Below are positions 2,950 through 34,006 of a stretch of DNA of 64,000 nucleotides, one piece after another. Each line of letters begins with the position of its first letter. The stretch's first letter is position 1. The notes beneath the pieces were generated by a model. The model ran no database searches. It saw only the letters and a list, made by a program, of their open reading frames with translations, and had not been told where the DNA came from. The stretch comes from Phycisphaerae bacterium. Its GTDB lineage: Bacteria; Planctomycetota; Phycisphaerae; UBA1845; Fen-1342. A program made the position numbers and the translations under genes. Where the stretch lies: contig CAXXWX010000023.1 in NCBI GenBank assembly GCA_963675745.2, positions 128,001 to 192,000 of the forward strand, given 5' to 3'.

Positions 2950-4638
2950 CTATTCGAGGTAGCCCAGATCGCTGAGGCGCTGCTGCAGGATGCGCTTCTC
3001 TTCCTCGCTGTAAACCTCGTCGTGCGCCTCGGCCTCTTTCTTGATGGGCGGCTCATGCTCGACGACGAGCTTGGTGGAGAAGGCTCCGTCGATGACATGA
3101 CCTTCCATGTCGGCCGGCACGCGCAGACCCAGCAGCGCCAGCAACGTCGGGGCCACGTCGCCGATGTCCGCCGAAACGCGCACGCCGGGAGCGACATGCG
3201 GGCCGCCAATCGCCAGCACCCCCTCCACGCGGTGCGTGCCCTCCAGGCGTTTCAGTGACGACCAGCGCACCAGCCGGCTGCCGCGGATCTTACGCACGAC
3301 CGCGAGCCCCGGTTGCGGCACGAGCATCAGGTCGGGCAAGTCCGGGCTGTCATCGCGACTGCAACCGTACAGCTCTTCGGTCTTGTGGACTTCCGTGAAT
3401 ATCTTGACTGACTTGCCACGCGCGTTGCGCGTCTCGGCGCTGAGAAAGCGGGCGATCAGGTCGTCGCGAATCCGCTCGTAGTCAGCCGGGTCCACGATCC
3501 CGTGTGGGCCGCGGCCTTTGAGGTTGAGGTACAGGAAACCATAAATGCCCGCGTGCATTACACAGGCCTTGGTGCGTGACCAATCCACCGCCAGGTCGGA
3601 CTCGATGCCACGATTGCCCTGCTCGAAGCGCGTCATCTTGCCTTTGGAGAGGCGGTACAGCCAGTGGCGCGCGCGCGTCGCCGCCCGCTGTAGCGGGCTG
3701 TCGAGCGACAGGTAGCCCCAGCGGTGCAGCAGCAGATTCGCCTGGGCCTTTCCGTCGAGACTGCCATGCCCGTGGTCGGACATGATCAGCACGCCGGCTT
3801 CGCGCTGCTCGGCATACTTGAAAAACTTGAGCAACACGTCATCGAGGCGGCTGAAACACGCCGCGGCCATCTCCGCCTGCCGCGGGTAGTTCTTGTTGAA
3901 ACGCGGGTCCAGATACTTCCACGCCTTGTGCTGCAGGTTATCGACCAGCTTGAACATGACCATCAACACATCCCAGCCGTAGCGTTCGCCGCAGTAGCGC
4001 GCCAGATCCCAGCCCTGGTCAAAGCTGTTGGATATGTAGTCGAGGTTGGTGGCCAGCACGTCCTGCCCGCCGAGCGCCTTGCGCTGCCAGTTCGTGCGAT
4101 AGTTGTAATGCGGCAGGACGTCGAAAATCTCCTGCTTCAGTTCACGCGGATAGGTGAATTCCGCGTCGATGCTGGGGGTCTCAAAGCCGCTGATCATGAA
4201 GCCGTTGACCGGATGGGGTGGATAGGTCATCGGCACGTTGATGCTGCCGACGCGCAGCCCCTTGTCGCTGAGTATCTGCCAGATGGTTTTTTCGCGAATC
4301 TCATAGGTGCTGTTGAACGAGAGCTGTCCGTCCGCGACGCTGTACTTCTCGAAGTCGATGATGCCGTGGCGTCCGGGCCCCTTGCCGGTCATGAAGGTCG
4401 TCCAGGCGGCCGGTGTGATCGGCGGCATCGTCGAGCGCAGCACGCCCGCCGCGCCGTTGGCCACAAAACGCTTCAGGTTTGGCATACGGCCGGACTCCAT
4501 CATCGGGTCCAGCACGTCAAACGTGGCGCCGTCGAGCCCCAGAATCAAAACCCGTTTGAGAATCGGCTTGAGCGGCCGAGGTGCGGATGCCTCCGGCATG
4601 GCCTGGGGTGCCCGCACCGCCGCGGTTGTCTCACTCAT
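2950..4638 (-). CDS. Alkaline phosphatase superfamily protein (nucleotide pyrophosphatase/phosphodiesterase type) with C-terminal RLxxLGY tail
   Basis: Motifs ILGLDGAT, PPITPAAW (Thr nucleophile), MSDHGHG and GTHR, ending in QQRLSDLGYLE. ATG at 4638 has GAGGT upstream. Confidence 0.85.
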   Translation of the reverse strand: MSETTAAVRAPQAMPEASAPRPLKPILKRVLILGLDGATFDVLDPMMESGRMPNLKRFVANGAAGVLRSTMPPITPAAWTTFMTGKGPGRHGIIDFEKYSVADGQLSFNSTYEIREKTIWQILSDKGLRVGSINVPMTYPPHPVNGFMISGFETPSIDAEFTYPRELKQEIFDVLPHYNYRTNWQRKALGGQDVLATNLDYISNSFDQGWDLARYCGERYGWDVLMVMFKLVDNLQHKAWKYLDPRFNKNYPRQAEMAAACFSRLDDVLLKFFKYAEQREAGVLIMSDHGHGSLDGKAQANLLLHRWGYLSLDSPLQRAATRARHWLYRLSKGKMTRFEQGNRGIESDLAVDWSRTKACVMHAGIYGFLYLNLKGRGPHGIVDPADYERIRDDLIARFLSAETRNARGKSVKIFTEVHKTEELYGCSRDDSPDLPDLMLVPQPGLAVVRKIRGSRLVRWSSLKRLEGTHRVEGVLAIGGPHVAPGVRVSADIGDVAPTLLALLGLRVPADMEGHVIDGAFSTKLVVEHEPPIKKEAEAHDEVYSEEEKRILQQRLSDLGYLE

Positions 4639-4713
4639 TTCGCTCACCTCGCTGCACAACCGCGCTGCCGGCCGAATCCCGCCACCGCCGGCACGCGGTC
4701 AGGTTGATGTGTG

Positions 4714-8566: not shown

Positions 8567-10744
8567 ATGAAGCGCGGCCGGCGCTCGAAGCACGATGGCC
8601 AAACCACCCCGGCGCCGCCCGGCGACCTTGGCCGCGAAGCACCGGGCGCGCCTCGCTGGAGTCGTGGACCGTGGTTGGCCGCCGCGCTGGCAACTGTCGC
8701 TTTTGTCCCCGCGCTGATGAACGATTTTACGTATGACGACATCCCCATCATTCGCGACAACATCCGCCTGCACGATCCAGCCAATATCCCGACATTGTGG
8801 TTGAGCGATTACTGGCGACCCGCCGGTGAAGATGCGCGCGTGCTCGACGCGCGGCGTGACCGGCTCTATCGCCCACTGGCGATGACCACCTATGCCCTCA
8901 ATCTCGCCCTGCACGGCGCGCGGCCCGCGGGCTTTCTGCTGGTCAATCTTCTTCTGCACGCGCTCGCCGCCGCGCTCGTCTGGCATGTCGCCCACCTGCT
9001 GCTCCATGATCGAGCGACCGCGACCTGCGCCGCACTGCTGTTCGCGCTGCACCCGATTCATGTCGAGGCCGTCGCCAATATTGTGGGCCGGGCGGAATTG
9101 CTCGGAGCCGTGGGCATGCTCGCCGGCCTGCTTGTGCTCTTGCGCGGGTCGCGCCCTCCCGGCATCCGCGCCGCGGTCGTCGCCAGCGCGCTGTTCTTCA
9201 TGGCACTGGCGTCGAAGGAGTCGGCCATCTGCTACCCGGTGGTCGCGCTGATCGCGCTGCTGGCCAGGGGCCACAGCGCTCGACCCGCAACCTGGTCACG
9301 GCGGATCACGCTCACGGCTGTTCTGCTCGTGCCCGTCGCGGTCTATCTCCCGCTGCGCTACGCCGCGCTCGGCGGACACCTGACGCGTATCGCACCGCCC
9401 AGTCACTACGGTAACCCGCTTACGGTGGCCACGCCGCTTCAGTGCTTCGTGGGTGTCTTCACAATAATCGGTAATTACGCGCGACTACTCGTGCTTCCCA
9501 ATCGCCTCAGTGCGGACTATGGCCTGGCGGTGATTGATCCGGCCGCCGGCGTAAACGCCATGACCATACTGGGAGCGCTGGTATCGCTTGCGACGCTCGT
9601 CGCGCTGCTCGGCATCTTCCGGCCCGGCCGACCCGTGCGGATCGTCGCGACGCTGGCCGCCATCTTCGTCGCCAGCTATGTCCTGATTTCCAACGCCTTC
9701 CTGACCATTGGCGTCACGCTCGCCGAGCGGTTGATGTACTGGCCATCTGTGCCCTTTTTGATGGTGGCGTCGGTGGGCATCATGGCGGCGTGGCGAAAGA
9801 TCAGTCGCGCAAACGAGGCGAAACCAGCCACCGCACGTCTCATCGGCGTTGCCGGCGTGGCGGTGCTGGCGGCGTTGGGGTTGCGCAGCTCGATCCGGGC
9901 AACGGACTGGCAGTCCAACCTGACGCTCTTCGAGACCGACGTCAGAACACACCCCCAGAGCATACACATCAACCTCAACCTCGCCGAAGCCCTGGTGAAC
10001 AAGCCCGCGCGCTCGGCCGAAGACTTGCGGCGTGCCGACGAGTGCATCGCACGCGCCCTCGAGATTTCGCCGCGAACGCTCGACGCGTTGCAACTCGGCG
10101 GCATTGTGGCGTACCTGCTGAAGGACAACGCCCGCGCCGCGCGTTACCTCGAGCTGGCCACGAGTCTCGGGCCGGTCGATGAGCTGTCGCAGGAAATACT
10201 CGCCGAAGTGCGCGGCGCCGCCGCCGAGGCGAACGACCGCATAACCGCTCTGCGCGCGCTGACGGCGCGCGATGCCGGAAACACCGCACTACACCTGGAA
10301 CTCGGCGAAGTACTGCTCAGCGTTGGGCGATACCGCGACGCGTTTGAGTCGGCCCAGACCGCCCAGCAACAGGATCCGGAAAGCCCGGCGGCCAACTGGC
10401 TACTGGCCCGCGCCGCTATCGGAACGGACCAAACGCCGCGCGCCGTGGCCGCGCTACGGCGGGTTGTTGCGGCCGATCCTGAAAACTGGCGGGCACACAC
10501 GCAGCTCGCGGTGCTGCTGCACATCGCCGCCCCGCGGCAGGCACTCGACCACGCGCGGATTGCACACCAGCTCGCCCCGGCCGAGCTGGAGACCAATCAA
10601 AACCTCGCGGAAGTGCTGGTCGCCAACGGTCGGATTGACGAGGCGATCGAGCGATTTCGGCTCATTGAGCGCGGTTTGCCGGAAGGTGATCCGCTGCGCG
10701 CCGCAGTCGCCGCGCGCATCGCAGACCTGGAACAAGACCGGTAG
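8567..10744 (+). CDS. TMTC-like GT-C membrane glycosyltransferase (putative protein O-mannosyltransferase) with TPR repeats
   Basis: FTYDD loop, YRPL, HPIHVEAVANIVGRAE, SKE, LSADY and AERLMY motifs, many TM helices, C-terminal TPRs. Confidence 0.85.
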   Translation: MKRGRRSKHDGQTTPAPPGDLGREAPGAPRWSRGPWLAAALATVAFVPALMNDFTYDDIPIIRDNIRLHDPANIPTLWLSDYWRPAGEDARVLDARRDRLYRPLAMTTYALNLALHGARPAGFLLVNLLLHALAAALVWHVAHLLLHDRATATCAALLFALHPIHVEAVANIVGRAELLGAVGMLAGLLVLLRGSRPPGIRAAVVASALFFMALASKESAICYPVVALIALLARGHSARPATWSRRITLTAVLLVPVAVYLPLRYAALGGHLTRIAPPSHYGNPLTVATPLQCFVGVFTIIGNYARLLVLPNRLSADYGLAVIDPAAGVNAMTILGALVSLATLVALLGIFRPGRPVRIVATLAAIFVASYVLISNAFLTIGVTLAERLMYWPSVPFLMVASVGIMAAWRKISRANEAKPATARLIGVAGVAVLAALGLRSSIRATDWQSNLTLFETDVRTHPQSIHINLNLAEALVNKPARSAEDLRRADECIARALEISPRTLDALQLGGIVAYLLKDNARAARYLELATSLGPVDELSQEILAEVRGAAAEANDRITALRALTARDAGNTALHLELGEVLLSVGRYRDAFESAQTAQQQDPESPAANWLLARAAIGTDQTPRAVAALRRVVAADPENWRAHTQLAVLLHIAAPRQALDHARIAHQLAPAELETNQNLAEVLVANGRIDEAIERFRLIERGLPEGDPLRAAVAARIADLEQDR

Positions 10745-13088: not shown

Positions 13089-14366
13089 TCATACCTGCCT
13101 TGAGGCGGCCTTTGTCCAGAGCCGTCCTTCACCGCGTGCCGTACCGACTGGATCGTGCGTTACGACAAAAGCGGCCGCTGCTGAGATAATCATGAACGGC
13201 ATCAGCGGCACACGATAGCGCAAACTTCCGATATAGATGCAGTGTACGAGCGTGAAATAGGCGATCGGCAGCCACAGCAGCACAATCAGCAGCCGCCGGC
13301 GCCGACGTGCGCTGGGTGAGCCCAACTGCCCGACCAGGCGAAACACACCGACAAGCGAGGCGACGATCACCGGCAGCATGAACGCGGCGCTGACCAGCCC
13401 GGCCAGGCCGCCCCGGTATTGCTCGTAATTCGGGCGCGGATTCCACGTGCGCGCAAATTTCACGCCCGCCAGCCGTACCACGCGATACGGATCATGCCAC
13501 ATGTGGCGTCTGGCGAGTGCTCCCAGTCGGCGATCGACCTGAACCTCATCAAGCGCGGCCAATTCGGGCATGTGCTGGAGGAAGGATTGGTCACTGGCCC
13601 CGGTCGCTTGTGGGCCCTGCGCGTCATACAGCGTCACGCCGCCGTTGGTGCTCAGCCAGGCATAGCTGCCAATCACCAGGCGATTGCGCAACCCCCAGGG
13701 CAGCAGCAATGCGACGCACACCAGGCCAAGGCCGATCATGCGGTAAGCCGCCCGAATCCTGTTCTCGGAGAAGAGCCACAGAACCAGCCAGATAAGTGGG
13801 ATCCAAGCCGCCGCGGACGGTCGAGTCAGTATTGCAATCGGCCCTAATAGCGCCAAAGCGACCAACCCGCGCCGGCTGATCTCGTGCGGCCGCCTCAGCG
13901 TCATCCACGCCGTGTACGTCAGCCCCACGCCCGCGAGCGTGAACAGCACCTCCGTCAACAGCAGGTTGCAGAAGAAGATGCTGTATGGATCGCAGGCCGC
14001 CAACAGGCCGGCGATCAGGCCGGGACGCCGGCCGAGCGCTTCCTGTGCGAACCGATACACCAGCCACGCCGTGATCGCCCCGATGACAGCCTGCGCCAGG
14101 CGTGCGGCGAGGATGCCACCGGGGCCGCGCCACGCAAACAGTGCCAGGAACAGAGGATACAGCGGCATGCGCGCCGCATAGCGGCCGTCGTCGGTGGCCA
14201 GGATTCCGTCGCCGACCAGGTTCTGCGCCAGTTGCCAGTGCAGCGCTTCGTCGTCGAACTCGAGCGTCGGTGCCGCGCCGGCGGCGCGCCACACGACCCA
14301 TGCCAGCCGCAGCACCAGCGCGACCAGGAACACCCAGAAACCGGCGTTGCCGGACACGGTTCTCAT
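13089..14366 (-). CDS. ArnT/PMT-family (GT-C) membrane glycosyltransferase
   Basis: FDDE first loop, RMPLYPLFL, LLTEVLF, LTRP, PWGLRN and RYRVP motifs; multiple TM helices. ATGA overlap with tilS. Confidence 0.8.
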   Translation of the reverse strand: MRTVSGNAGFWVFLVALVLRLAWVVWRAAGAAPTLEFDDEALHWQLAQNLVGDGILATDDGRYAARMPLYPLFLALFAWRGPGGILAARLAQAVIGAITAWLVYRFAQEALGRRPGLIAGLLAACDPYSIFFCNLLLTEVLFTLAGVGLTYTAWMTLRRPHEISRRGLVALALLGPIAILTRPSAAAWIPLIWLVLWLFSENRIRAAYRMIGLGLVCVALLLPWGLRNRLVIGSYAWLSTNGGVTLYDAQGPQATGASDQSFLQHMPELAALDEVQVDRRLGALARRHMWHDPYRVVRLAGVKFARTWNPRPNYEQYRGGLAGLVSAAFMLPVIVASLVGVFRLVGQLGSPSARRRRRLLIVLLWLPIAYFTLVHCIYIGSLRYRVPLMPFMIISAAAAFVVTHDPVGTARGEGRLWTKAASRQV

Positions 14367-16352: not shown

Positions 16353-18599
16353 GTGGAAAGGCAACAGATGTCGTGGCAATCTTCGGGCAGCCGACGTGCA
16401 ATACGCGCATGCGGCGCCTCCGGTACCGGTGCCGGCGAGGTGTTTCTGAGACGCGGGTTACTCGCGGCGTGCATTGTATATGCGCTCGCCAGCCCCGCGG
16501 AGGCATATATCGGCCCGGGAGCGGGTTTTGCGATCGCTTCCTCGTTTCTGACCGTGCTGGCGACGATGGCGCTGGCCCTGCTGGGGCTGATGCTGTGGCC
16601 GATCAACTGGTTGATCCGGTCAATCAGAGGACGCCGGGCCTTCGCAAAGGCCCGGATAAAGCGTCTGGTAATATTGGGCCTCGACGGCCTGGAACCCAGC
16701 CTCGTTGACCGCTTCATGGGCGAAGGCAAGCTGCCGAATCTGGCCAAGCTGAAAGAAACGGGTGGGTTCAGCCTGCTGGGCACAGTTTTACCACCACTGT
16801 CACCGGTGGCGTGGTCGACGTTTCTAACCGGCACAAACCCTGGCAAACACAATGTTTACGACTTCCTGAACTCCGACCGGCGCACCTACCTGCCCAGCCT
16901 GTCCTCAGTTCTGATCCGCCCGCCGACCAAGACCTTCAAGCTCGGCAAGTACGTTTTCCCGCTCAACAAGCCCGAGATTCGCCTGCTGCGCAAGGGCAAG
17001 CCATTCTGGCACACGCTGGGCGACCACGGCATATTCAGCTCGGTGATTCGCGTGCCGATCACGTTTCCGCCCGAGAAGTGCCGCGGCGTCGTTCTGTCCG
17101 CCATGTGCGCTCCCGACCTGCGCGGCACACAAGGGTTGTTCTCATTCTACAGCACACGTTCGGATGACAGCGAGGAGCGTACCGGCGGCGAGCAGATCCG
17201 CGTGCAGCGCGAAGGCGATCTGATTCGCTCTGAGCTTGTCGGGCCAGACAACAGCGTGGTGCTCGGCGAAGGCCCGATGAAAATCCCGTTCGAGGTGCGC
17301 ATCGCCGGCGAACGGGCGACCCTGCACATCGAAGGCGATCAGTATGACCTCGAGCCCGGAATCTACACGCCTTGGATAACCGTCAACTTCCGGGCCGGCA
17401 TGGGCATATCCGTTCAGGGCGTATGTCGTTTCATGCTGGTAAGAACGCAGCCCGAGTTCGAGCTGTACGTGATGCCGATCAACATCGATCCAGAGAAGCC
17501 GGCCATGCCGATCTCGCACCCGGTGGCGTACAGCACGTATCTCTCAAAGCGCTTCGGGTCGTTCGCAACACTCGGATTGGCCGAAGACACCTGGGCGCTG
17601 AACGAGGACTTGATCGACGACCAGGCATTCGTCGATCAGTGCATGTTCATCGACAGCGAGCGCGAGCAGCAGTTCTTCGACGCGATCGACAACACCGGCA
17701 ACGGGCTGGTGGTCTGTGTCTTTGACGGCACCGATCGGCTGCAGCACATGTTCTGGCGCTATTTGGAAGATGATCATCCGGCGCACCCCAAGAACCTCCA
17801 CCCCGAAACGTACAAACCCAATGGCAGCGAGCGGGTGCTTGAAGAGCTGTATATGCGCATGGACAAGCTCGTCGGCGAAACGATGGAGCGGACAGTCAAG
17901 CGCGACAAGAACACGGTGTTGATGGTCCTGTCCGATCACGGATTCTGCTCGTTCCGCCGCGGCCTGGATCTCAACGCCTGGCTAATCGAAAACGGCTACA
18001 TGAAGCTCAAGCCGGACGCCAAGCCGGGTGCCCAGTATCTCGCCGCGGTGGATTGGGAACACACGCGCGCGTACACGCAGGGATTGGCCGGGATGTTCAT
18101 CAACCAGAAGGGCCGCGAGGCCCAAGGTATCGTCGAGCCCGGCGAGGAAATGCAGAAGCTGAAGGACGAGATCAGCGCAAAGCTGACCGGCTTGCGCGAT
18201 CCGGCGAATGATGAGATTGCCATTCGCCGCGTGTTCGACAAGGAAAAGTCATATCAAGGCCCGTATCGCGCCACGGCCCCCGACCTGGTGATTGGATATA
18301 ACCGTGGCTATCGCATTGCGTGGGACACCGCGATCGGTAAAGTAACCGGCTCGGTCTTTCACGATAATACGAAGGCGTGGAGCGGCGACCACTGCATCGA
18401 CCCGGAACTGATCCCGGGCGTGATGTTCTGTAGCCACAAAATCGAGAGCGAGTCGCCGCGGCTGATGGATCTGGGGCCGACGGCGCTGGATCTGTTCGGC
18501 ATCGCGGTTCCCGCCAACATGGATGGCCGGCCGCTGAAGATCGCCGTTGGAAACGGGCATACCGCCGGAAAAACCGCGCCGGTCGCCGCGGCGGGGTAG
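16353..18599 (+). CDS. Membrane-anchored alkaline phosphatase superfamily (NPP-type) protein with N-terminal AYIGPGAG motif
   Basis: ILGLDGL, PPLSPVAW (Ser nucleophile), SDHGF and WSGDHC motifs. The true start may be GTG 16440. Confidence 0.85.
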   Translation: MERQQMSWQSSGSRRAIRACGASGTGAGEVFLRRGLLAACIVYALASPAEAYIGPGAGFAIASSFLTVLATMALALLGLMLWPINWLIRSIRGRRAFAKARIKRLVILGLDGLEPSLVDRFMGEGKLPNLAKLKETGGFSLLGTVLPPLSPVAWSTFLTGTNPGKHNVYDFLNSDRRTYLPSLSSVLIRPPTKTFKLGKYVFPLNKPEIRLLRKGKPFWHTLGDHGIFSSVIRVPITFPPEKCRGVVLSAMCAPDLRGTQGLFSFYSTRSDDSEERTGGEQIRVQREGDLIRSELVGPDNSVVLGEGPMKIPFEVRIAGERATLHIEGDQYDLEPGIYTPWITVNFRAGMGISVQGVCRFMLVRTQPEFELYVMPINIDPEKPAMPISHPVAYSTYLSKRFGSFATLGLAEDTWALNEDLIDDQAFVDQCMFIDSEREQQFFDAIDNTGNGLVVCVFDGTDRLQHMFWRYLEDDHPAHPKNLHPETYKPNGSERVLEELYMRMDKLVGETMERTVKRDKNTVLMVLSDHGFCSFRRGLDLNAWLIENGYMKLKPDAKPGAQYLAAVDWEHTRAYTQGLAGMFINQKGREAQGIVEPGEEMQKLKDEISAKLTGLRDPANDEIAIRRVFDKEKSYQGPYRATAPDLVIGYNRGYRIAWDTAIGKVTGSVFHDNTKAWSGDHCIDPELIPGVMFCSHKIESESPRLMDLGPTALDLFGIAVPANMDGRPLKIAVGNGHTAGKTAPVAAAG

Positions 18600-18617
18600 C
18601 CGCTGAGTGAGTTGGAT

Positions 18618-20663
18618 ATGCGCATAGCCGCCGCCGTAATAATCGTCGTCGTGAACCTGTTCGCGCTGATCTTCTTCTGGCCGAGTGGCGAAGGGGAAGA
18701 TGTGCGGCCACAGGCGGGGCGCGGCGATGGCAAAAAGGTGTTCATACTCGGGTGTGATGGGCTGGATGCCGAGCTCATCGAACGGATGCTGCGCGAGGGG
18801 CGCCTGCCGAACATGGCCAAGCTGGCCGCCAAGGGTGGATTTCGACCGCTCACGACCAGCATTCCGCCGCAAAGCCCCGTTGCCTGGTCGAACTTCATCA
18901 CGGGCGCCGGCCCCGGCGTACACGGCATCTTTGACTTCATTCACCGCGAGCCGGACAAGCAGTACGCCCCGTACTTCTCCACCAACTACTTCGCCCAAAA
19001 ACACAATTGGTGGATCACCAGGAAGCTGATTCCCGAAACGGTCGGCGGATATGTGCTGCGCGGCACCACACAGAACACGCTCATGCGCAAGGGTACGCCG
19101 TTCTGGGACTATCTCGACACGGCCGGCATCAAGGTCGACCTGTATCGCTTGCCGGCGAATTACCCCCCCAGCAAGTCGAAGTACGGCAACGTACGCTGCC
19201 TGCCGGGCATGGGTGTACCCGACGCGGTCGAGACCGGCACACAGGGAACCTACCAGCAGTTCACCACCAAACCGCGACGCGAGGTCGAACTGGGCGGCGG
19301 CAAGAAGTTCAAACTGCGGCGTGATCCAAAGACGCGCGCATATGTCGGCACGCTGCGCGGGCCGTCGAACATGTTGCTCGCCGACGCGCCCAACATGACG
19401 CTCGATTTCAGCGTGTACCGCGACCCCGAGCGCGACGCCGCGATCATAACCTATGAGAACAAGGGTATTGCCGGCACCGAAGAGGTGAGCATCCCGCTGA
19501 ACGTCGGGGAGTGGAGCGACTGGGTATATGTCGACTTTCCGCAAACCGGCCTGCGTGTTCCGGCGATGCGCACGATGGCGCGTTTCCTGCTACAGGGCGT
19601 GCGACCGCACGTGGACGTGTACGTCACGCCGCTGAACTTCGCGCCTGACGCGGCCCCGCCGGACTTCAGCGAGCCGTCCGACTTTGTCAAAGATATCGGC
19701 GAGGGGATCGGGCCTTTCTACACGCAGGGATTCGCTGAGGACTTCAAGGCCCGTGACCAGAACGTGTTGAGCGACGAGGAGTTTCGCCAGCAGGCCGAAC
19801 TCGTGCTTGACGAGCGAATGAAAATGCTGGACTTCGCGCTCGACAATTACGTGGACGGGCTGCTGTTCTTCTACTTTTCCAGTTCCGACTTGCAGGCGCA
19901 CATCTACTGGTGGGAATCAACCGATGAGCACCCGATCCGCTCATGGGAGGATGCGCAGCGCTTCAACCGCGTGGTCGAAGACGTCTACGTCAGGCTCGAC
20001 GAAGCGCTCGGCCACAGCCTGGAGCGGCTCGGCGAAGACCTCACCGTAATCGTCATGTCCGATCACGGATTCGGCAACTTCGGGCGCGGATTCGCGCTGA
20101 ACACGTGGCTGCGCGAGGAGGGCTACCTCGTCGCCGATCGCGGTCTCCTGTTCGACTGTGACTGGTCGCAGACGCGCGTATACGGCCTGGGCCTGAACGG
20201 GTTGTACCTGAACCTCAAGGGCCGTGAGCCCGAGGGCATCGTCGATCCGGCCGAAGCCGATGAGCTGCTTGACGAATTGTGCGACAAGCTGGTGGCCCTG
20301 CGTGACCCCGAGAACGGCCGACAGGTTATTCTCCGGTGTTACAAGACCAAGGACTGGTATCACGGCCCCGAGGCGGTCAACGCGCCCGACATCATTGTCG
20401 GATACGGCGCGGGGTATCGCTCGAGTTGGAATACGGCGTTGGGCGATTTCGACAAAAGCGTCGTGGTGCCGAATCACAGCGCCTGGAGCGCCGACCACTG
20501 CGTGGCGCGCGAGCTTGTGCCGGGCATCGTCATCGCCAACCGGCCGATCAATCGCGCTGACCCCGCCCTGATCGACCTGGCACCGACTATTCTCGGAGAG
20601 TTTGGGCTACCCACGCCCGAGACCATGACTGGACGCAACATTTTCGGGGCGCCGGAGGAGTGA
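18618..20663 (+). CDS. N-terminally anchored alkaline phosphatase superfamily (NPP-type) protein, paralog of the upstream gene
   Basis: One N-terminal TM helix; ILGCDGL, PPQSPVAW, SDHGF and WSADHC motifs. Confidence 0.85.
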   Translation: MRIAAAVIIVVVNLFALIFFWPSGEGEDVRPQAGRGDGKKVFILGCDGLDAELIERMLREGRLPNMAKLAAKGGFRPLTTSIPPQSPVAWSNFITGAGPGVHGIFDFIHREPDKQYAPYFSTNYFAQKHNWWITRKLIPETVGGYVLRGTTQNTLMRKGTPFWDYLDTAGIKVDLYRLPANYPPSKSKYGNVRCLPGMGVPDAVETGTQGTYQQFTTKPRREVELGGGKKFKLRRDPKTRAYVGTLRGPSNMLLADAPNMTLDFSVYRDPERDAAIITYENKGIAGTEEVSIPLNVGEWSDWVYVDFPQTGLRVPAMRTMARFLLQGVRPHVDVYVTPLNFAPDAAPPDFSEPSDFVKDIGEGIGPFYTQGFAEDFKARDQNVLSDEEFRQQAELVLDERMKMLDFALDNYVDGLLFFYFSSSDLQAHIYWWESTDEHPIRSWEDAQRFNRVVEDVYVRLDEALGHSLERLGEDLTVIVMSDHGFGNFGRGFALNTWLREEGYLVADRGLLFDCDWSQTRVYGLGLNGLYLNLKGREPEGIVDPAEADELLDELCDKLVALRDPENGRQVILRCYKTKDWYHGPEAVNAPDIIVGYGAGYRSSWNTALGDFDKSVVVPNHSAWSADHCVARELVPGIVIANRPINRADPALIDLAPTILGEFGLPTPETMTGRNIFGAPEE

Positions 20664-20786: not shown

Positions 20787-20987
20787 ATGTTTGGCGGAAA
20801 CGTGAAGATTGACAAGCACCTGCTGGAGCGGGTCAAGAAGTACTCGAAGATCGCCGGCTATGGCACGCCCGATGAGTTTATCACGCATTGCCTCGAAAAG
20901 GAGCTCGAGCAGCTCGAAGCCGGCGAAGGTGGCGACGACGAACAGGCCATCATGGAACGTCTGCGCGGCCTGGGATACATTGAATAA
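20787..20987 (+). CDS. 66-aa protein: ribbon-helix-helix-like N-terminus plus RLRGLGY C-terminal motif
   Basis: AGGAG RBS then ATG. Sequence MFGGNVKIDKHLLERVKKYSKIAGYGTPDEFITHCLEKEL...ERLRGLGYIE. Confidence 0.8.
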   Translation: MFGGNVKIDKHLLERVKKYSKIAGYGTPDEFITHCLEKELEQLEAGEGGDDEQAIMERLRGLGYIE

Positions 20988-21023: not shown

Positions 21024-21860
21024 ATGAACGTCGTCCTCGATGCGATCACGTTTTTGATGAACGGCATCGGCCGGGTGCTGTTTGTCACCGGCGGATTCCT
21101 CTCGCCCGCGCTCACGCTGCTGTTGATCTCGCAGGTGCTCGCGATCGGCATGCTGTATCTGTGGCGGTATACATCCAACCAGGACGCGATCGCCGCCGGT
21201 CGCCGAAAGATCTCCGCCTATCTGATGGCGACGTTGCTGTTCAAGGACAACCTGCGCGTCATGTTCCGCTCGCAACGGGTGATTCTGTGGGAGACGCTGA
21301 GAGTATTGGGGTACAGCGTTCCGCCCATGATTGTCATGCTGATCCCGTTTGCGTTAATCGTGGCGCAGATCGGGTTGCGCTACGAGTTTGACATGGCCCC
21401 CACCGGCCGGACCATTAACGTGCTGGCGCAGCTCAAATCACCCGATGGTCTCGACAAGGGTGGCGACCAGCTCAGCCTGCCCGACGGTGTGCGCAGCGCC
21501 CCGCTCGACCCGGTCCGCGCCGCGCCGATCGGCACGGTTACCTGGCGCCTCACCGCCGACAATCCGGGGGTCTACACGCTCAAATTCGGAGACGGGGACG
21601 ATGTTGTCGAGATGCCGCTGGCGGTCGGCGATGGGTTCCAACGCATCAGCGCCGTGCGGGGCGGTGGCGTTCTCACGCGGCTGATGTACTCGGCGTTGCC
21701 ATCCATACCGGCCGACTCGGTCTTCAAAGAGATCCGCATCGACTATCCGAAACGCTCGACATCTCTGTTCGGGTTTGACTGGCACTGGCTGATCTGGGTG
21801 CTGGTGCTATCGATCGTCTTCGGCTTTTTGTGGAAACCGGTGCTGAACGTGCAGATCTGA
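21024..21860 (+). CDS. Membrane protein resembling the EMC3/TMCO1/DUF106 (Oxa1 superfamily) fold
   Basis: TM1, a basic helical hairpin, TM2 'PPMIVMLIPFALIV', a soluble beta insert, then TM3 'WLIWVLVLSIVFGFLWK'. The CDS is secure; the family call is inference. Confidence 0.55.
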   Translation: MNVVLDAITFLMNGIGRVLFVTGGFLSPALTLLLISQVLAIGMLYLWRYTSNQDAIAAGRRKISAYLMATLLFKDNLRVMFRSQRVILWETLRVLGYSVPPMIVMLIPFALIVAQIGLRYEFDMAPTGRTINVLAQLKSPDGLDKGGDQLSLPDGVRSAPLDPVRAAPIGTVTWRLTADNPGVYTLKFGDGDDVVEMPLAVGDGFQRISAVRGGGVLTRLMYSALPSIPADSVFKEIRIDYPKRSTSLFGFDWHWLIWVLVLSIVFGFLWKPVLNVQI

Positions 21861-27355: not shown

Positions 27356-28033
27356 ATGTTGAAATTGGGCGTGCTGGCGCTGGTGCTGGCCATGTCGAGC
27401 GCGGCCTCGGCGGTCGTGGTTGACGACTTCACGGACGGCGGCATCAGCCTGACCGCCATCGATCTTATCGGACAAACGGAGAGTCAGGTGGGGCTCGACC
27501 CTAACACGGTCCTCGGCGGCGGACGCGACATCTACGTCGGCGCGACCGCCGGCGCCACTGTCGGCACACAGTTGGTCATCGACGATGTCGCCGGCGAACT
27601 CAGTCTGACGTCTGACCCGGTCCAGCGCGGCTACATGACACTCGAGTACATTGTCGCCGACGCTCAGGGACTCGATCTCACGGCGGAAGCCGGCAACGAC
27701 CGCATCAGTCTCGACGTCGTGAACGTGACGCAGGGCATTTCCAGCGGCGTTTTCGACCTGAAGATCGAAAGCGGCCCGTTGGGAAACACGGTGTCCGAAT
27801 CGACCAGCTTCGGCCCCGGTCGGCTCTGGGATCTGCCGGGCAGCGGCGTGGTGGACGTGCCGTACGCGGATTTCACGTCAACGGACTTTACGCAGGTGCG
27901 GGCGATCTCGATCGACATCGCGCGCTTCCCCGCCGACGCCAACCTGACGCTCGGCGGCATCGCGACGACGCCGGAGCCGGCTTCGATCATGGCGCTGCTG
28001 GTGCTGACCGCGCTGGCCCGCCGCCGCCGTTAG
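27356..28033 (+). CDS. PEP-CTERM sorting-domain surface protein
   Basis: Signal peptide and C-terminal TPEPASIMALLVLTALARRRR. Confidence 0.9.
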   Translation: MLKLGVLALVLAMSSAASAVVVDDFTDGGISLTAIDLIGQTESQVGLDPNTVLGGGRDIYVGATAGATVGTQLVIDDVAGELSLTSDPVQRGYMTLEYIVADAQGLDLTAEAGNDRISLDVVNVTQGISSGVFDLKIESGPLGNTVSESTSFGPGRLWDLPGSGVVDVPYADFTSTDFTQVRAISIDIARFPADANLTLGGIATTPEPASIMALLVLTALARRRR

Positions 28034-28061
28034 ACTCGCCCCGAGATCACTCAGCCAATAG

Positions 28062-28098
28062 AAAGCGGCCGCGATGCACCGATCGCGGCCGCTTTATT
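28062..28098 (+). terminator. Intrinsic terminator after the PEP-CTERM gene
   Basis: Perfect 14-bp stem AAAGCGGCCGCGAT/ATCGCGGCCGCTTT with a 6-nt loop. Confidence 0.75.
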
Positions 28099-28107
28099 GC
28101 GCGTGTG

Positions 28108-28221
28108 CGGCGCTGGGCCCAGATGATGCGGGCCTCGATGAAGACCGACTGCGTCCAGTTCAACACCCACCGCATGCTCGGCGACTAGGTCCGCAGGTAC
28201 TACCTCCCCGCCCACCGACAG
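28108..28221 (+). pseudogene. Fragment of an alpha-glucan (glycogen/starch) phosphorylase gene
   Basis: Translates as RRWAQMMRASMKTDCVQFNTHRMLGD*VRRYYLPAHRQ, matching the 'W..MM.ASM.....FN..RM...Y...YY.P' end of the GT35 catalytic domain. TAG sits at the conserved Tyr. Confidence 0.7.
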
Positions 28222-28256
28222 GGCACGTCGAGCTCAGCGAGACGTGGCGGTGCCCG
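28221..28256. repeat. Single REP-like unit, same family as 30591-30670
   Basis: GGGCACGTCGAGCTCAGCGAGACGTG shares the GTCGAGC..(A/C)GCGAGAC-type core. Confidence 0.45.
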
Positions 28257-28408
28257 GCAATACAGGCAGATCCCCCAGCGCGGCGGGTGTAAGCTCTCGC
28301 ATGCCTTGATTACCGATAACTGGAAGCCATAGGATTGGGTGGTCGTCGCCATGGGGTGGGCGCGGTCCGCCGGCGGCGGTGGGATCGGGATATCAAGGAG
28401 CCAGGCTG

Positions 28409-29071
28409 ATGTTACGCATCGTGATCGCGCTGGCTTTGTGCAGTGGCGCCGTGGCCGGCGCGGCGCCGTACTCCGTGTCATACGAGGGTAACGTACTGCC
28501 GGAGGATGACGGCTGGGAGCGCTTCCACGGCTACGACGATAACGAGGCCGATCGATACATCGACAACGGCGTGCTGGTCATCGATTCGATGCACGATGGC
28601 CAGGTTTACGACTACGTGACACACGACGCCTCGCCGGCGACCGCGATGGAGCCGGGTGAACTCCTTGTCGTCGAGTGGCGCACCTACTTGGCCGCCACGG
28701 AGGGTCGCGACGCCATTTTCGCCCTGATCCTTGGGGATTGGACCGAGGATTTCACGCTCGGGTATGACCACGTCCACCTGGGTTGGCTGCGAATCAACGT
28801 CCCGGTCACTCCGGAAGTGTGGCATACCTACCGCATTGAGATGACGCCGTCGTATTCATACATCTTCTTCATCGACGCTGAACCGCGGGTCCAGGCATCG
28901 CTGTTCGAGGTGCCGGATGACCGCGAGATCATCGCGTTTGGGGACGGCGCAATCGGTGCCAGGTCAATATCTCACTGGGACTACGTTCACTGTGACGTTG
29001 TTCCAGAGCCTGGAACGACGGTTCTGCTGCTCGTGTGCGTTCACGGGTGGATTCGCAGGTTTCTCACATGA
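28409..29071 (+). CDS. PEP-CTERM-like secreted beta-sandwich protein
   Basis: AAGGAG RBS, signal peptide, C-terminal VPEPGTTVLLLVCVHGWIRR. Confidence 0.8.
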   Translation: MLRIVIALALCSGAVAGAAPYSVSYEGNVLPEDDGWERFHGYDDNEADRYIDNGVLVIDSMHDGQVYDYVTHDASPATAMEPGELLVVEWRTYLAATEGRDAIFALILGDWTEDFTLGYDHVHLGWLRINVPVTPEVWHTYRIEMTPSYSYIFFIDAEPRVQASLFEVPDDREIIAFGDGAIGARSISHWDYVHCDVVPEPGTTVLLLVCVHGWIRRFLT

Positions 29072-30528
29072 AGCGAGTTGGTTCGATGACCAGGCTCACG
29101 CACAGACTGCTTGCGATCTTGTCACTGATGTTTGTCACCACGGCCATCACACAGGCGGAGATCCGCCAATTCGGTCCGGCGGATCCGAACTCGTATACGA
29201 TCTACAACGACACGCAGACGATAGTCATCAAGTAGTGCACCGGTCTCGAGTTCAAGTTCGAGTCCTACACCAGCGGCTCCCCAGATCAGATCAAGGGCAT
29301 AACAGTCGAGCCCGATCCCAACGACCCCAACGCTATCGAGGTCGCGCCACTTGTCAGCATCATCGGCGATCCCAACGAGAGCCACACTATCGGTGCCACC
29401 AACGTGTGGTTCATCGATCTGCGTGCCGACGGGGCGCCAACCGGCGTAGTGAAAGACATCAACATCACCGGCAGCCTCGGTGCTTCCGCTGCTTCGCAAG
29501 GGTCGTTCTTCGCACGCTTCACCGGCACCGCAGAGGTCAACAACATCAAGCAGGATCTTACGACCACCGTGGCCGGCGCGGGCATCACCATCGACGGAAC
29601 CGTGGCCCTCGACAATGGTGCCGTGCTCGATATGCCGCTGTCAGCCGGTGAGGAGATCGTCATCGATGGACGCATGCAGAACGCCACAATCATGACACAC
29701 AGCGCCAACGACATCCGCTTCACCTCAACGGGCAACATCACGCGCACGGGCACAATCCGCGGCCCCGAAAGCGGCTCTTACACGGGCGACATTGAGATCG
29801 GGATCGGAGCCGGAAGCTCGGCCAAGTGGCAGGGGCTGATCGAGTTCGACGACTTCGGTGGTACACTCGAGATCAACACCCTCCTGGCCAAGGCCGATGC
29901 CAGCGCGGGCGGCATTCGCATCAACGGTAGTTTCCTGAATGGTGGCGAGATCACGATCACCAACGCCACAGCATCGGCGGGGGCGTTCGTATCGGTAGAC
30001 TATGATGGCTACCACGCCGGCGATAGCTGGGATCCCAACGCCACCGTCACAGTCAACAGCACGGAGTATACCGGTAATACTCCCGCCGCATATATCTACG
30101 AAATCACCGAGTGTCTTGGCGACATGACCAACGACGAGACCACCAACAACGGCGACATCGACGCGTTCACTACCGGCCTCACCGACCCTGACGACTATGA
30201 TGATAGCTACCCCGCGCTGGCCGGCAGCCGCATCTACCATGGCGACTGCAACCGGGACACCTACTATAACAACGGTGATATCGACGCCTTTGTCACATTC
30301 CTGAGCGACCCGGGTTGCCCAACCGGCGCATCGGAGAGCGGCGGCGGTGGCGGCGGCGAGGGTGAATACAGCCATACGCCCGCGAGCGTGGCGCTGATGT
30401 ACGCCGAGAACCTCTCCTCAGCCAACCTCACCGCTTTCTGCGGTTATCTCTCCGACCTGATAGACAGCGAATCCGAAACGCCCGTCGGCGCGTTCTGGGA
30501 GCAGGTATACAAGCTGCTGTGTGAGTAG
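29068..30528 (+). pseudogene. Secreted dockerin-like-domain protein interrupted by an in-frame TAG at 29233-29235
   Basis: ATGA overlap with the upstream gene, signal peptide, one TAG, then the same frame stays open to 30528. Twin NNGDID motifs near the C-terminus. Confidence 0.75.
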
Positions 30529-30590
30529 GCCGGGTATAAATGCAGCGCTCACGCTCGCTGGGGCGGGTGGACGATGCCCAAGGCCGAGAC

Positions 30591-30670
30591 GTAGGGCAGG
30601 TCGAGCGCGCCGAGACATGTCGACCGTGGCGCTCACGACGGCCGGTCTCGCTGCACTCGACGTCCCCTGC
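30591..30670. repeat. Degenerate GTAG-type REP doublet between convergent genes
   Basis: GTAGGGCAGGTCGAGCGCGCCGAGAC ... GTCTCGCTGCACTCGACGTCCCCTGC (inverted). Confidence 0.55.
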
Positions 30671-30730
30671 CCGTACGCAGGTCTTGTTCGTCGTGCATGG
30701 AGGCCCGACACTACCGGGGGTTTCCCAATG

Positions 30731-33700
30731 TTAGTCACCGGATAGCAGGGCCACGAATGCGTCGATGTCGCCGTTGTTGACCAGACCGTCATCGTTGCAG
30801 TCCGCCAGGTCGCGATCACAGTTCGGGTAAGTCGTGTCGTAGAGTGACGGATTGGTCAGCGCCAGCACGAACGGGTCGATGTCGCCGTTGTTGATCAGGT
30901 TGTCACAGTTCAAGTCGCCCAATATGCCGCTCGTGACGACGAAGTACTGCAAGCCGGCGATCGTCCCGAGATCGGTGGTTCGCGGTTCGCCCAGGCTGTC
31001 ACCGCCGCCCAACGCGCCGAGCACCTGGTTGGACAGGTGGTCGTGCGCGGGTGCGTTGAGCAGCGCGACTACGCGGCAGGCCCCGCTTGGACTATCAAGC
31101 AACGTCAGCGGGATCGACAGCTCAATACCCGTGGTGACGTCTTCCGGGTATACGCCGACCAGGTCAATCAGCTCGGTGCCGCCGTCGACGCCAAGCGTAT
31201 TCGAGTTGTCGATCGTGGCGAGCAGCACCTCGGGATTATTGCCAACAACCAGGCCGTCCCACGAGCGATCTGCCGCCGCCCCCTCTCCGAGGAACTGCGC
31301 GAATCCGGTGTTGCCCTCGTTGACGTACAACTCGGCATAGTTGACGTACAGCGTGTACGGCGTGTCGCCGCCGGACAGACCGATCCAGAAGTCCGCCGCG
31401 AAGTTGGGATCCAAGGTCAATCCATCGCCGATACCGGCGTCGCCCAGGCGTTGGAGCGCGCCGTCGTCGATCACGGGATTGTCGTGCAGGATGCGTTGTT
31501 GCCCGCCCGGGCGGGTATCGAAGAACAGCTCCAGCTTGTTGTAGTTGGATTCGAGGTTACCGGTCAGCAGCAAATGGAGCCGGTTGTCGGTCAGCCGGCC
31601 ATACGCCGCGTCGAGCTCGGAGCCGTTGGCGGCGTCAACCAGGCCCAGGTTGCTGTCGCCAAAGCTGGTCTGCGTGTCCTGAATCGCCAGCGGCGCCCCG
31701 TATTGGGCGTCACGGACGCCATCGACCAGGAACGGATCGCACGGCTGCCCGCAGGGGCATGTAGTGCAGTCGCTGCCGTCGCCTTGATAGTCGCCACCCA
31801 GTGCCGTGCACTGCTGCGCCAGCGTCACCAGGCACACATCGACCAGACAACACGCGCCAATCGAGTAGCACTCATCGGGAATGCCGTCCGTGTTTACATC
31901 CTGGCTGGTGCCGTCAGCGATGTCGCACGTGTCAAGGACGCCGTTCTTGTTGCAGTCGCTGCACCACGGTTGGCCACTGCACAAGGCGGCATCTTCCGCA
32001 TCGTCCACGCCATTAGCATTGCAGTCATGTACCACGACGGCCTGTGCCACACCGGCCAGCGCATCGGCGCGCAGGATCACGAAGTCATTGTCGCCATCAA
32101 TCTCAAAGCTGAACGCCGGCCCGTCGATTGTGCGCCCGTCCTGGCTTATGGCGTCCCAGGTTCCGAACAGCGTCGGCTTCCAGTTGTAGTGACCGGGTGA
32201 CAGGCCTCCGAGTGTGATTTCGTATACGGACGGCGCGACCTCGCTCATGAGGGCGTTGGGATCACTTGGATTCCACGCGTTCCAGTCGCCAACGGCGGCC
32301 CACGGCCCGGGAGCGCTGCTGAGAATCAACCGATCGTGATCGGGCAGCCAACCGTCTTGATGCGTGCGCGCATCGTACTGCACGGTGATCGTGCCGTTGG
32401 GGTCGGCGTAGAGCCAACTGTTCGCCGGCGGCAACGCGCGTTCCCAGGTGCCGTTTGTCACCTTGAATTCCTGGCGCAGGCTGTTCGGGTCCAGAGAATA
32501 CAGGGTGAGTTCGTGTACACCCGGTGCGATGTATGCCATCGGGTCGCTGGCGGGATTCCAGCCGTTGAAGCCACCGGCCAGATACGGGTGCAGGATGAAC
32601 TGGTCGCAGAGTCCGGTCTCACACTCGACATACTCCCCAATGAACTCGCCGCCGACTGAGTAGCACTCATGGCGCGGGCGCTCGGTGCAGACCGTGTCCT
32701 CGCAGCACGCTCCCTGTACGCACGGTCCCCACGAGCAGTCGCTGTATCGTCCCAGGAAGACGCCGCCATACATGGTGCAGTCTTCCTCGAGCATGAAGTC
32801 GTAGCAGTCAGACTCGACGCAACAGGCACCGGGTGCGGGTATCAGGCAGGGGCACCCGTCGCAATTCTCACCCTCTTCGAATACGCCGCCCAGCGACGCG
32901 CATTCCGTCGCGTCGGTCACGTGGCACTCGCCGGCATATCCGTTGTCGAAGCAACAGCGTCCGGCCGGAGTGCCGTCACAGGGATTGCCGTCACAGGGGA
33001 CGTTGTCACCCAGATAGACACCGCCGCTGCCGGCGCAAGTGGTCGGATCGGACTGCAGGCAATTCGAGCCCAGACAGCACGCGCCGCTCAGCAGCGGGTA
33101 TAGCGACACCGTCACCGGCGTGGCGCCGCCGAACAGCCCCAACATGGTTCCGCGTGGCTCACCGGGCTCGAGCGCGCCGCCGAGACCGCCCAGCATCTGG
33201 TTTGATATGTAGTCCACGCGGCTGCTGGTGATGAACGCCAGCAGTTCAAGGTCGCCTGACGGGTTACCCAGCGCCGACAGCGGGATGGCGAACTCGATGC
33301 CGGTCAACACCGGATCCGCGGGCGTCTCGTAGTCGATTCCGTAGGTGACGCCGGCCACGTTGCTGTTGTCCAATGCGCATTTGGCAAAGAACGGCGCGCC
33401 GAGATCCGCCCCGGACAGCACACCATCACTCGTGCTGCAACGCGAACTGCCGGCCCCGAGATAATACGCCTCGCCTGGATCGTTCGGATCAACGTACAGG
33501 CGCGCGTAATTCACATGAACCTTGGTGGGCAGACCGAAACACTTGAATGACACGAAGTAATCCGGGGCGAAGCCGGTCGGAAAAGTCAGCCCCGGCCCCG
33601 GCGGCCCCCACATGTCGGGGTTGTTGGGATCAGACGTCCCCATGCGCTGCAAAGCGCGGAAGTCGATTTCCGGATTCTCCGGCCCCAGCAGCGTTGATTG

Positions 33701-34006
33701 ACCCTGTCCCGGCAGTGTGTCAAAAAAGAGCACCAGCCGGTCACCGAAATCCGTGTTGAAGTTGCCGGCCAGCACGAGATACAGCGTGTCGCCGTACACG
33801 GCACTGTACAGCGCGTCCAGTTCGGAGCCGGGCGCGATGTCCGGCTCACCGAGATAGCTGTCGCCCATCGAAGTCTGCGTGTCCTGTTCGATGAGCGGAG
33901 ACCCATAGAGCGGATCAGCCGCCGAGCCGTCCATGATGGGCTGTCCGTAGGCGAAGCCGCCGAGCGCCAGCAGCACCAGAGCCAGGCCATAGTGGTTCGT
34001 AGACAT
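30731..34006 (-). CDS. Secreted modular non-catalytic protein: duplicated 'DTQT..GDS..GSELD' domain, GACC Cys-rich repeats, two starch-binding-like modules, dockerin-like tail
   Basis: Signal peptide, internal duplication, 'YLAGGFNGWNP...EFKV..GTW' and 'AVGDWNAWNP...WKP..GTW' modules, GDLNCD..NNGDID. Confidence 0.8.
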   Translation of the reverse strand: MSTNHYGLALVLLALGGFAYGQPIMDGSAADPLYGSPLIEQDTQTSMGDSYLGEPDIAPGSELDALYSAVYGDTLYLVLAGNFNTDFGDRLVLFFDTLPGQGQSTLLGPENPEIDFRALQRMGTSDPNNPDMWGPPGPGLTFPTGFAPDYFVSFKCFGLPTKVHVNYARLYVDPNDPGEAYYLGAGSSRCSTSDGVLSGADLGAPFFAKCALDNSNVAGVTYGIDYETPADPVLTGIEFAIPLSALGNPSGDLELLAFITSSRVDYISNQMLGGLGGALEPGEPRGTMLGLFGGATPVTVSLYPLLSGACCLGSNCLQSDPTTCAGSGGVYLGDNVPCDGNPCDGTPAGRCCFDNGYAGECHVTDATECASLGGVFEEGENCDGCPCLIPAPGACCVESDCYDFMLEEDCTMYGGVFLGRYSDCSWGPCVQGACCEDTVCTERPRHECYSVGGEFIGEYVECETGLCDQFILHPYLAGGFNGWNPASDPMAYIAPGVHELTLYSLDPNSLRQEFKVTNGTWERALPPANSWLYADPNGTITVQYDARTHQDGWLPDHDRLILSSAPGPWAAVGDWNAWNPSDPNALMSEVAPSVYEITLGGLSPGHYNWKPTLFGTWDAISQDGRTIDGPAFSFEIDGDNDFVILRADALAGVAQAVVVHDCNANGVDDAEDAALCSGQPWCSDCNKNGVLDTCDIADGTSQDVNTDGIPDECYSIGACCLVDVCLVTLAQQCTALGGDYQGDGSDCTTCPCGQPCDPFLVDGVRDAQYGAPLAIQDTQTSFGDSNLGLVDAANGSELDAAYGRLTDNRLHLLLTGNLESNYNKLELFFDTRPGGQQRILHDNPVIDDGALQRLGDAGIGDGLTLDPNFAADFWIGLSGGDTPYTLYVNYAELYVNEGNTGFAQFLGEGAAADRSWDGLVVGNNPEVLLATIDNSNTLGVDGGTELIDLVGVYPEDVTTGIELSIPLTLLDSPSGACRVVALLNAPAHDHLSNQVLGALGGGDSLGEPRTTDLGTIAGLQYFVVTSGILGDLNCDNLINNGDIDPFVLALTNPSLYDTTYPNCDRDLADCNDDGLVNNGDIDAFVALLSGD

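Follow-up and report, generated by a model that had tools for sequence, protein, structure and literature searches.

A predicted three-helix Oxa1-superfamily protein encoded with AlkP-family enzymes in a planctomycete operon

The final gene of an operon in the 64,000-nucleotide stretch of DNA analyzed here (the window) encodes a 278-aa protein that, on the combined evidence of profile searches and a structural model, is a bacterial three-helix member of the Oxa1 superfamily (i.e., DUF106/Ylp1/TMCO1-like). In the excerpts available from four papers (PMC5868721, PMC8887752, PMC8675477, and PMC7616256), archaea and the ER are assigned the three-helix Oxa1 proteins, and bacteria are assigned YidC, with its five helices. 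The fixed gene neighbors of the window protein suggest that a role as a general insertase is unlikely, and it sits in a module for envelope modification that is apparently undescribed. As a tentative reading, to which we give a little short of even chances, we propose that it acts as the conduit through which a relay would move sulfuryl groups across the membrane, from PAPS in the cytoplasm to an acceptor in the periplasm. Neither a bacterial DUF106 clade nor this operon was the subject of any paper found in our search of the open-access literature; supplements could list bacterial PF01956 members. The coordinates of the features are given in Table 1.

Table 1. Features of the window and of related loci. 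Coordinates refer to the window unless a locus (L) or contig (C) is named.
Feature	Coordinates	Strand	Basis or remark
AlkP enzyme 1 (PF01663): a segment like a signal peptide, then the YIGPG-TM anchor, a basic linker, and a catalytic domain predicted to be cytoplasmic	16353..18599	+	start codon uncertain
YIGPG-TM-amphipathic module with N-terminal Tyr	16506..16661	+	stand-alone protein in other genomes
AlkP enzyme 2 (PF01663), predicted to be exported, with a hydrophobic anchor at the N terminus	18612..20663	+	
65-aa protein, no signal peptide, C-terminal LxGLGY tail	20787..20984	+	
Three-TM Oxa1-superfamily (DUF106/Ylp1/TMCO1-like) protein, 278 aa, final operon gene	21024..21860	+	profiles, model, structural match
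N-terminal amphipathic helix (residues 2-22), predicted outer face	21027..21089	+	model; orientation from homology and charge
TM1 (residues 28-48), polar S36 family-conserved	21105..21167	+	model, hydropathy
Helical hairpin (residues 51-99), predicted cytoplasmic, basic yet hydrophobic; S51 and Q53 near-invariant	21174..21320	+	
TM2 (residues 100-120), bears P101, P108, and Q115	21321..21383	+	
Filamin-like Ig domain separating TM2 from TM3, predicted to be periplasmic	21387..21764	+	model, structure and profile matches
TM3 (residues 253-274), W255 and S263; aligns with C-terminal helix of MJ0480	21780..21845	+	
Kinase-Oxa1 fusions	L092:4013-7159; L093:2712-4727; L094:3809-6514		rifampin-phosphotransferase-like domain order
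Four-gene run encoding an ASST, a YxGPG helix as a separate protein, the Oxa1-like protein, and a Sulfotransfer_3 (PAPS-type) enzyme	L097:4267-7665; L144:6607-10353		
Second LGY-tail family	L148:2554-2850; L080:953-1183; L083:16611-16853; window genome, C13:146235-146435		

Anatomy of the protein and its match to the Oxa1 superfamily

The open reading frame has a GC3 of 0.83. An AlphaFold2 model of the protein (144-sequence alignment; pLDDT 96.9; pTM 0.88) contains helices at residues 2 to 22, 28 to 50, 53 to 72, 77 to 120, and 255 to 274, with a beta-rich insert at residues 130 to 253. The hydrophobic moment of residues 2 to 22 is 1.39 (i.e., amphipathic), and peaks of hydropathy begin at residues 18, 29, 99, and 256, the first of them straddling the amphipathic helix and TM1. 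Model and hydropathy agree with the amphipathic N terminus, TM1, TM2, and terminal TM3 described in the sequence-only reading of this DNA, whose quoted TM2 and TM3 segments were located at residues 100 and 253, respectively. Two of its elements can be refined. The insert of roughly 120 aa measures approximately 125 aa and is Ig-like, matching filamin Ig domains by structure (Z of approximately 6) and filamin C by profile (E = 0.0023). The segment described as basic and helical is indeed basic (9 K/R versus 3 D/E in residues 48 to 99) and is modeled as a two-helix hairpin (residues 53 to 72 and 77 to 97, the second helix continuing into TM2) that is unusually hydrophobic, with a mean hydropathy of approximately 0 in the clade of the window protein (group A, defined below) versus −0.96 in its sister clade (group B).

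An N-out/C-in topology with a cytosolic hairpin is predicted from homology and charge, and the charge bias fits it (hairpin, 9.0 K/R versus 3.4 D/E; N terminus, 0.8 K/R; basic C-tail). Polar positions, candidates for a lipid-exposed hydrophilic groove, are conserved in the family (S36, Q53, S98, Q115, and S263), including three within the TM segments (S36 in 86%, Q115 in 90%, and S263 in 91% of 150 sequences). These residues argue against a passive scaffold, in which the Oxa1 fold would anchor the Ig domain and hold the enzymes of the operon together while its groove stayed idle. Such a scaffold would account for the hydrophobic group-A hairpin, which is conserved like a binding surface, and for the Ig domain, a typical interaction module. 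However, a 152-aa homologue at locus L097 lacks the Ig domain and retains the membrane core (its single-sequence model is poor [pLDDT 57.6] and the structural matches of that model are uninformative), and we consider a scaffold very unlikely.

The archaeal protein MJ0480/Ylp1 (5C8J) is matched by the profiles of the close family (E = 8.3e-5), the wider family (1.3e-8), the sister clade (2e-7), and all groups (1.3e-14), and it is the sole clear PDB sequence match to the family profiles. Amphipathic helix, TM1, hairpin, TM2, and TM3 are colinear in the two proteins, which have Q, P-M, P, W, and S positions in common; the wider, sister, and all-group profiles also align the C-terminal helix of MJ0480 colinearly, a stretch that alone is not significant. 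Unlike MJ0480/Ylp1, the window protein is bacterial, carries the Ig domain between TM2 and TM3, has the hydrophobic group-A hairpin, belongs to an enzyme operon, and exists alongside a five-helix YidC. PF01956 (EMC3_TMCO1) was matched by 24 of 51 close homologues at an E value of ≤1 (best, 3.2e-7) and by 13 of 144 alignment homologues at ≤0.01; a sister-clade protein passes its gathering score (38 versus 27.1 bits), and JGI annotation labels some homologues "DUF106 family." The window protein itself had no PF01956 match at an E value of ≤1, and none was found genome-wide at ≤0.1. When the protein was searched alone, no Pfam family was matched, and the NCBIfam search returned nothing significant. 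SxtJ matches from Pfam in the homologues (28 of 51; best E value, 0.0037) were set aside as weak.

In the structural comparison of the model with 48,161 solved chains, the best match and the only one with a Z of ≥8 was chain 8 of 7TUT (Z = 11.1; rmsd = 3.2; 134 residues; model range, 24 to 278), a multipass-translocon entry of which we take this chain to be TMCO1. YidC (3WO7) was matched weakly (Z = 7.5; rmsd = 7.3), and 5C8J, EMC3, and Get1 were absent among the 50 structural matches listed. Since helical bundles can reach such Z values through arrangement alone, we place weight on the agreement of sequence and structure. A Foldseek search of the model against the PDB, which the sequence-only reading had suggested as a check, gave no match at an E value of ≤0.001, and re-comparison of the top 1000 Foldseek chains produced solely Ig-like and helical matches (Z ≤ 6.3). 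Sequence-level searches of the PDB left TMCO1, EMC3, Get1, and their partners unmatched, an Atlas search with residues 1 to 125 gave no usable match, and a search for viral relatives of the family found none. The proposed Oxa1/DUF106 homology is thus carried by the MJ0480 profile matches, PF01956 in homologues, and the 7TUT structure, and not by a Pfam match of the window protein alone.

Family range and coexistence with YidC

The three-helix pattern is not a chance one, since the family profile matches 2,658 clusters (50% identity) at an E value of ≤0.001, of which 731 match at ≤1e-30. The ESM Atlas neighbors are bacterial, most commonly Acidobacteriota, Aminicenantota, and Planctomycetota, and the loci from named genomes are all from Planctomycetota (30 of 30). 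Within the phylum of the window, the Oxa1-like gene was matched in 64 of 301 genomes. We defined group A as the 37 of 301 genomes matching at an E value of ≤1.2e-30 (the window genome included), group B as 21 further genomes matching the sister profile at ≤5e-70 (no overlap with the group A list), and group C as two genomes (L097 and L144). The profiles of groups A and B align over 260 columns (99.8%). In an unrooted tree of 45 selected rows, none of them archaeal, each group falls on one side of a branch: group A (99/99), group B with the fusions described below (95/89), and the two long-branched group-C rows (97/92). A subgroup of homologues (P0079, P0083, P0084, P0086, P0106, P0116, P0141, P0142, P0146, P0149, and P0190) has approximately 40 extra N-terminal residues resembling a second amphipathic helix.

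The window protein belongs to the same superfamily as YidC/Oxa1/Alb3 (PF02096), from which it differs in having three TM segments rather than five, and it gave no PF02096 match. Of 62 carrier genomes, 60 also encode an ordinary YidC, and the two in which none was found are 85 to 88% complete; in the window genome, PF02096 is matched once, by a separate gene that lies on another contig. We rejected a replacement of YidC on the basis of this ordinary YidC in the window genome and most carriers. Second PF02096 matches were seen in frames of 1,420 to 1,504 codons (G080:C36, G216:C80, G248:C59, G004:C49, and G256:C10), which perhaps represent fusions of YidC domains with large proteins.

Partner genes in groups A and B

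PF01663 is the only Pfam family matched in the window operon, in which no MBOAT or SGNH proteins were found among the Pfam matches; scans for promoters and terminators gave nothing beyond chance. Among the 33 group-A loci that could be fetched (of 36 other than that of the window), an AlkP gene is present in 33 and the small gene in 31. Enzyme 1 starts with an optional signal peptide and YIGPG, followed by a hydrophobic stretch of approximately 25 residues and then by a proline and a basic helix. By the positive-inside rule, this arrangement places its catalytic domain likely in the cytoplasm. Enzyme 2, whose homologues carry a lipobox, twin-arginine (Tat), or plain Sec signal, is likely periplasmic. 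Both enzymes have an intact NPP-like two-metal/serine site, with invariant catalytic Asp/His ligands and a Ser/Thr nucleophile in 45 enzyme-1 and 54 enzyme-2 sequences, and their sole PDB sequence match is phosphonoacetate hydrolase. The 65-aa protein is ribbon-helix-helix-like in its N-terminal part (by eye; no Pfam match), and its C-terminal LGY motif is present in 60 of 61 sequences.

The predicted placement of enzymes to either side of the membrane would be compatible with a scramblase whose substrate is a lipid-linked carrier, sulfated or phosphorylated, that is synthesized inside and consumed outside, and in the excerpt of PMC11047089 YidC, Get1, and Oxa1 scramble lipids in vitro, as do TMCO1 and Emc3 in simulation. 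Against this, the operon has no recurrent lipid-carrier gene, YidC would already make scrambling available, and the donors of ASSTs, enzymes that together with a sulfotransferase replace the AlkP pair in the two group-C loci, must be aryl rather than alkyl sulfates in the part of PMC13426309 that deals with them. We regard a scramblase as highly improbable.

A third AlkP/PF01663-like gene of the window (2950-4659, − strand) encodes no signal peptide, and its product ends in an RLxxLGY tail that matches the tail of the 65-aa protein but is fused here. Near the operon are a membrane protein (8567-10744, + strand) in which Pfam finds TPRs only and which presumably resembles the TMTC mannosyltransferases, and a PMT_2 glycosyltransferase (13089-14366, − strand), whose similarity cluster spans 20 of 68 group-A loci, possibly chained via TPR repeats. 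In the region 27356-34006, inspection by eye shows several exported proteins whose ends resemble PEP-CTERM or dockerin sequences, as is typical of this phylum. In genome G026 the operon is split between contigs, with enzyme 1 and the small gene on one and one AlkP gene and the Oxa1-like gene on the other (L146:5796-8061 and L079).

The YIGPG module was found in 40 of 301 genomes (E < 0.001; four weaker matches dropped). The Oxa1-like gene accompanies it in 39 of these, and the module is present in every one of the 37 group-A genomes. Among the metagenome loci anchored on the module (the best 80 of 514), 31 have at least 5.6 kb downstream; the Oxa1-like gene is present in 25 of these and was not found within approximately 6 kb in the other 6. 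The module Tyr occurs in 36 of 36 rows, chosen by a pattern that contains Tyr, and also in three stand-alone YxGPG forms found by profile. Several YxGPG helices have a short N-tail and no cleavable signal. A complex prediction for the protein and the module scored 0.01; the controls did not fold, so the result carries no weight either way. Like TMCO1, EMC3, and Get1, the window protein combines a three-TM core with an accompanying membrane helix, and its co-occurrence makes the YxGPG helix a candidate analogue of EMC6, OPTI, and Get2. Unlike EMC6, OPTI, and Get2, the partner in this family consists of one helix in group A or of a hairpin in group B and is joined to enzymes. A heterodimer of the TMCO1/EMC3/Get1 type is stated to be absent in bacteria in an excerpt of Lewis and Hegde (PMC8675477).

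In group B, a PPDK_N plus PEP-utilizer kinase adjoins or is fused to the Oxa1-like gene in 24 of 24 loci. The single-ORF fusions occur in 3 genomes of two families, with an extra membrane helix as the joint; they came from genomes, and a separate search for longer fused forms found none (weak evidence). The usual upstream gene encodes a PQQ-type propeller that has, at its N terminus, a VVP-xx-GP motif and a pair of hydrophobic helices, in some cases preceded by a signal; in two of the three fusion genomes, the propeller has a plain signal peptide only. FG-GAP propellers are often close to group-B genes. Homology of the group-B partner helix, which has no Tyr, to the YIGPG module was rejected (probability, 1.9%), and an "EMC1-like" label for the PQQ propeller was not accepted (one PF25293 match at 23 bits, versus a cutoff of 34).

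These observations bear on the operon-dedicated insertase or chaperone suggested by the sequence-only reading, which we keep as a rival. It would insert the N-out YxGPG helix of enzyme 1, help assemble the anchored enzymes, and then release them. The Oxa1 core with its conserved polar positions is in its favor, as is the N-out helix module that accompanies both clades, and YxGPG helices with a short N-tail and no cleavable signal are of the client type ascribed to Oxa1 proteins in the portion of PMC7616256 that treats them. However, the carrier genomes already possess YidC (60 of 62), a biogenesis factor would not be expected to be fused, as this protein is in three genomes, to a soluble cytoplasmic kinase, enzyme 2 relies on lipoprotein, Tat, or Sec signals, and the Tyr motif would need another explanation. 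We therefore rate a dedicated insertase as unlikely, if still a serious contender, and prefer the relay.

Sulfur genes, the proposed relay, and its cargo

Among the 33 group-A loci, cysC (APS kinase) is present in 18 and sat (ATP sulfurylase) in 10; any of cysC, sat, sulfotransferase, or ASST genes is found in 21, versus 0 of 24 sister-clade loci that served as the control. The cysC-linked loci are mutually related and therefore are not independent counts. A frequent gene order is sat, sulfatase-like gene, cysC, and enzyme 1, and among the metagenome loci (the best 80 of 514), 18 have sulfur genes. A second small ribbon-helix-helix-like family with an LGY tail precedes sat in PAPS clusters (Table 1). 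In group C, an ASST and a PAPS-type sulfotransferase stand in place of both AlkP genes. Locus L145 has an ASST and a YxGPG helix, and the Oxa1-like gene was not found there with the family queries. No sulfur genes adjoin the window operon or any of the 30 loci found via the close-relative alignment; the window genome has cysC, sat, sulfotransferase, and ASST genes on other contigs.

These neighborhoods leave room for the same relay with a different cargo, a phosphoryl or phosphodiester group (e.g., from a nucleotide-activated donor), in the window lineage. The absence of adjacent sulfur genes from the window and the 30 close loci would fit such a cargo, as would the PF01663 membership and NPP-like site of both enzymes and the PPDK-like kinase in all 24 sister-clade loci. 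However, the more distant group-A loci with PAPS or sulfotransferase genes (21 of 33) have the same enzyme pair, and group A is one clade. A phosphoryl cargo in the window lineage seems distinctly unlikely to us.

We favor a group-transfer relay across the membrane, with the Oxa1 groove as the conduit, because one layout recurs across three enzyme sets (i.e., a cytoplasmic enzyme capable of taking an activated donor and a counterpart predicted to be exported, together with the Oxa1 fold and a partner helix) and because PAPS and ATP are absent from the periplasm. Enzyme 1, or the PAPS-dependent sulfotransferase in variant loci, would load sulfate in the cytoplasm. The charged carrier, preferably a short N-tail with Tyr, the type of segment moved by Oxa1 proteins, would cross the membrane via an Oxa1-type groove partnered by the YxGPG helix. 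Enzyme 2 or the ASST would accept the group on its catalytic residue and hand it to an envelope acceptor, to which the Ig domain may position the transfer. The LGY tail would be provided in trans by the 65-aa protein, the cytoplasmic AlkP-family members having the tail fused. In the sister clade, an equivalent relay would carry phosphate from ATP.

Several observations stand against the relay. The window and all 30 close loci lack adjacent sulfur genes, the two-metal serine site of the AlkP enzymes is typical of phosphoester chemistry, and phosphonoacetate hydrolase is the only PDB sequence match of these enzymes. The helix that accompanies the sister clade lacks the Tyr and shares no homology with the YIGPG module, and the Oxa1-like gene was not found at L145, with its ASST and helix, or in 6 of 31 metagenome loci.

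The closest parallel for a sulfuryl relay is the caprazamycin pair Cpz8/Cpz4, in which, as in the variant loci, a PAPS-dependent enzyme and an ASST belong to one locus. The Cpz8 relay reportedly uses a soluble small-molecule shuttle, without membrane crossing or an Oxa1-like protein. Cpz4 is described in the excerpt of PMC13426309, in which ASSTs take aryl sulfates only and their natural donor is given as not known. The parallel for the carrier is found in DltABCDX and PatAB, which, in the sections available of PMC12148441, combine, as the proposed relay would, a cytoplasmic donor, a membrane component, an extracytoplasmic transferase, and a Tyr in a short terminal membrane-helix motif, DltX and PatA being the precedent for a Tyr shuttle. 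This is an analogy only: unlike the Dlt and Pat systems, the window system has no MBOAT or SGNH protein, its Tyr is N-terminal, its membrane component has the Oxa1 fold, and its cargo would be sulfuryl or phosphoryl. On account of the DltX/PatA analogy (PMC12148441) and the restriction of ASSTs to aryl donors (PMC13426309), we infer that the N-terminal Tyr is the best candidate for the carrier. The more specific version, in which a sulfotyrosine N-tail of the YxGPG helix would be shuttled across the inner membrane by a reciprocating Oxa1 peptide-carrier channel derived from a protein insertase, with PAPS driving periplasmic sulfation, is in our estimation unlikely as a whole.

That a three-helix clade is widespread in bacteria and coexists there with YidC is relevant to how the Oxa1 superfamily arose. 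If the relay is true, the Oxa1 fold would be used outside protein biogenesis, and a testable explanation would be at hand for sulfation and phosphorylation in a compartment without PAPS or ATP and for the natural donor of ASSTs (PMC13426309). If the sulfotyrosine version is true, the N-tail would be the natural donor of aryl sulfate that ASSTs are missing, and the sister clade, linked to its kinase, would represent a route of ATP-driven periplasmic phosphorylation.
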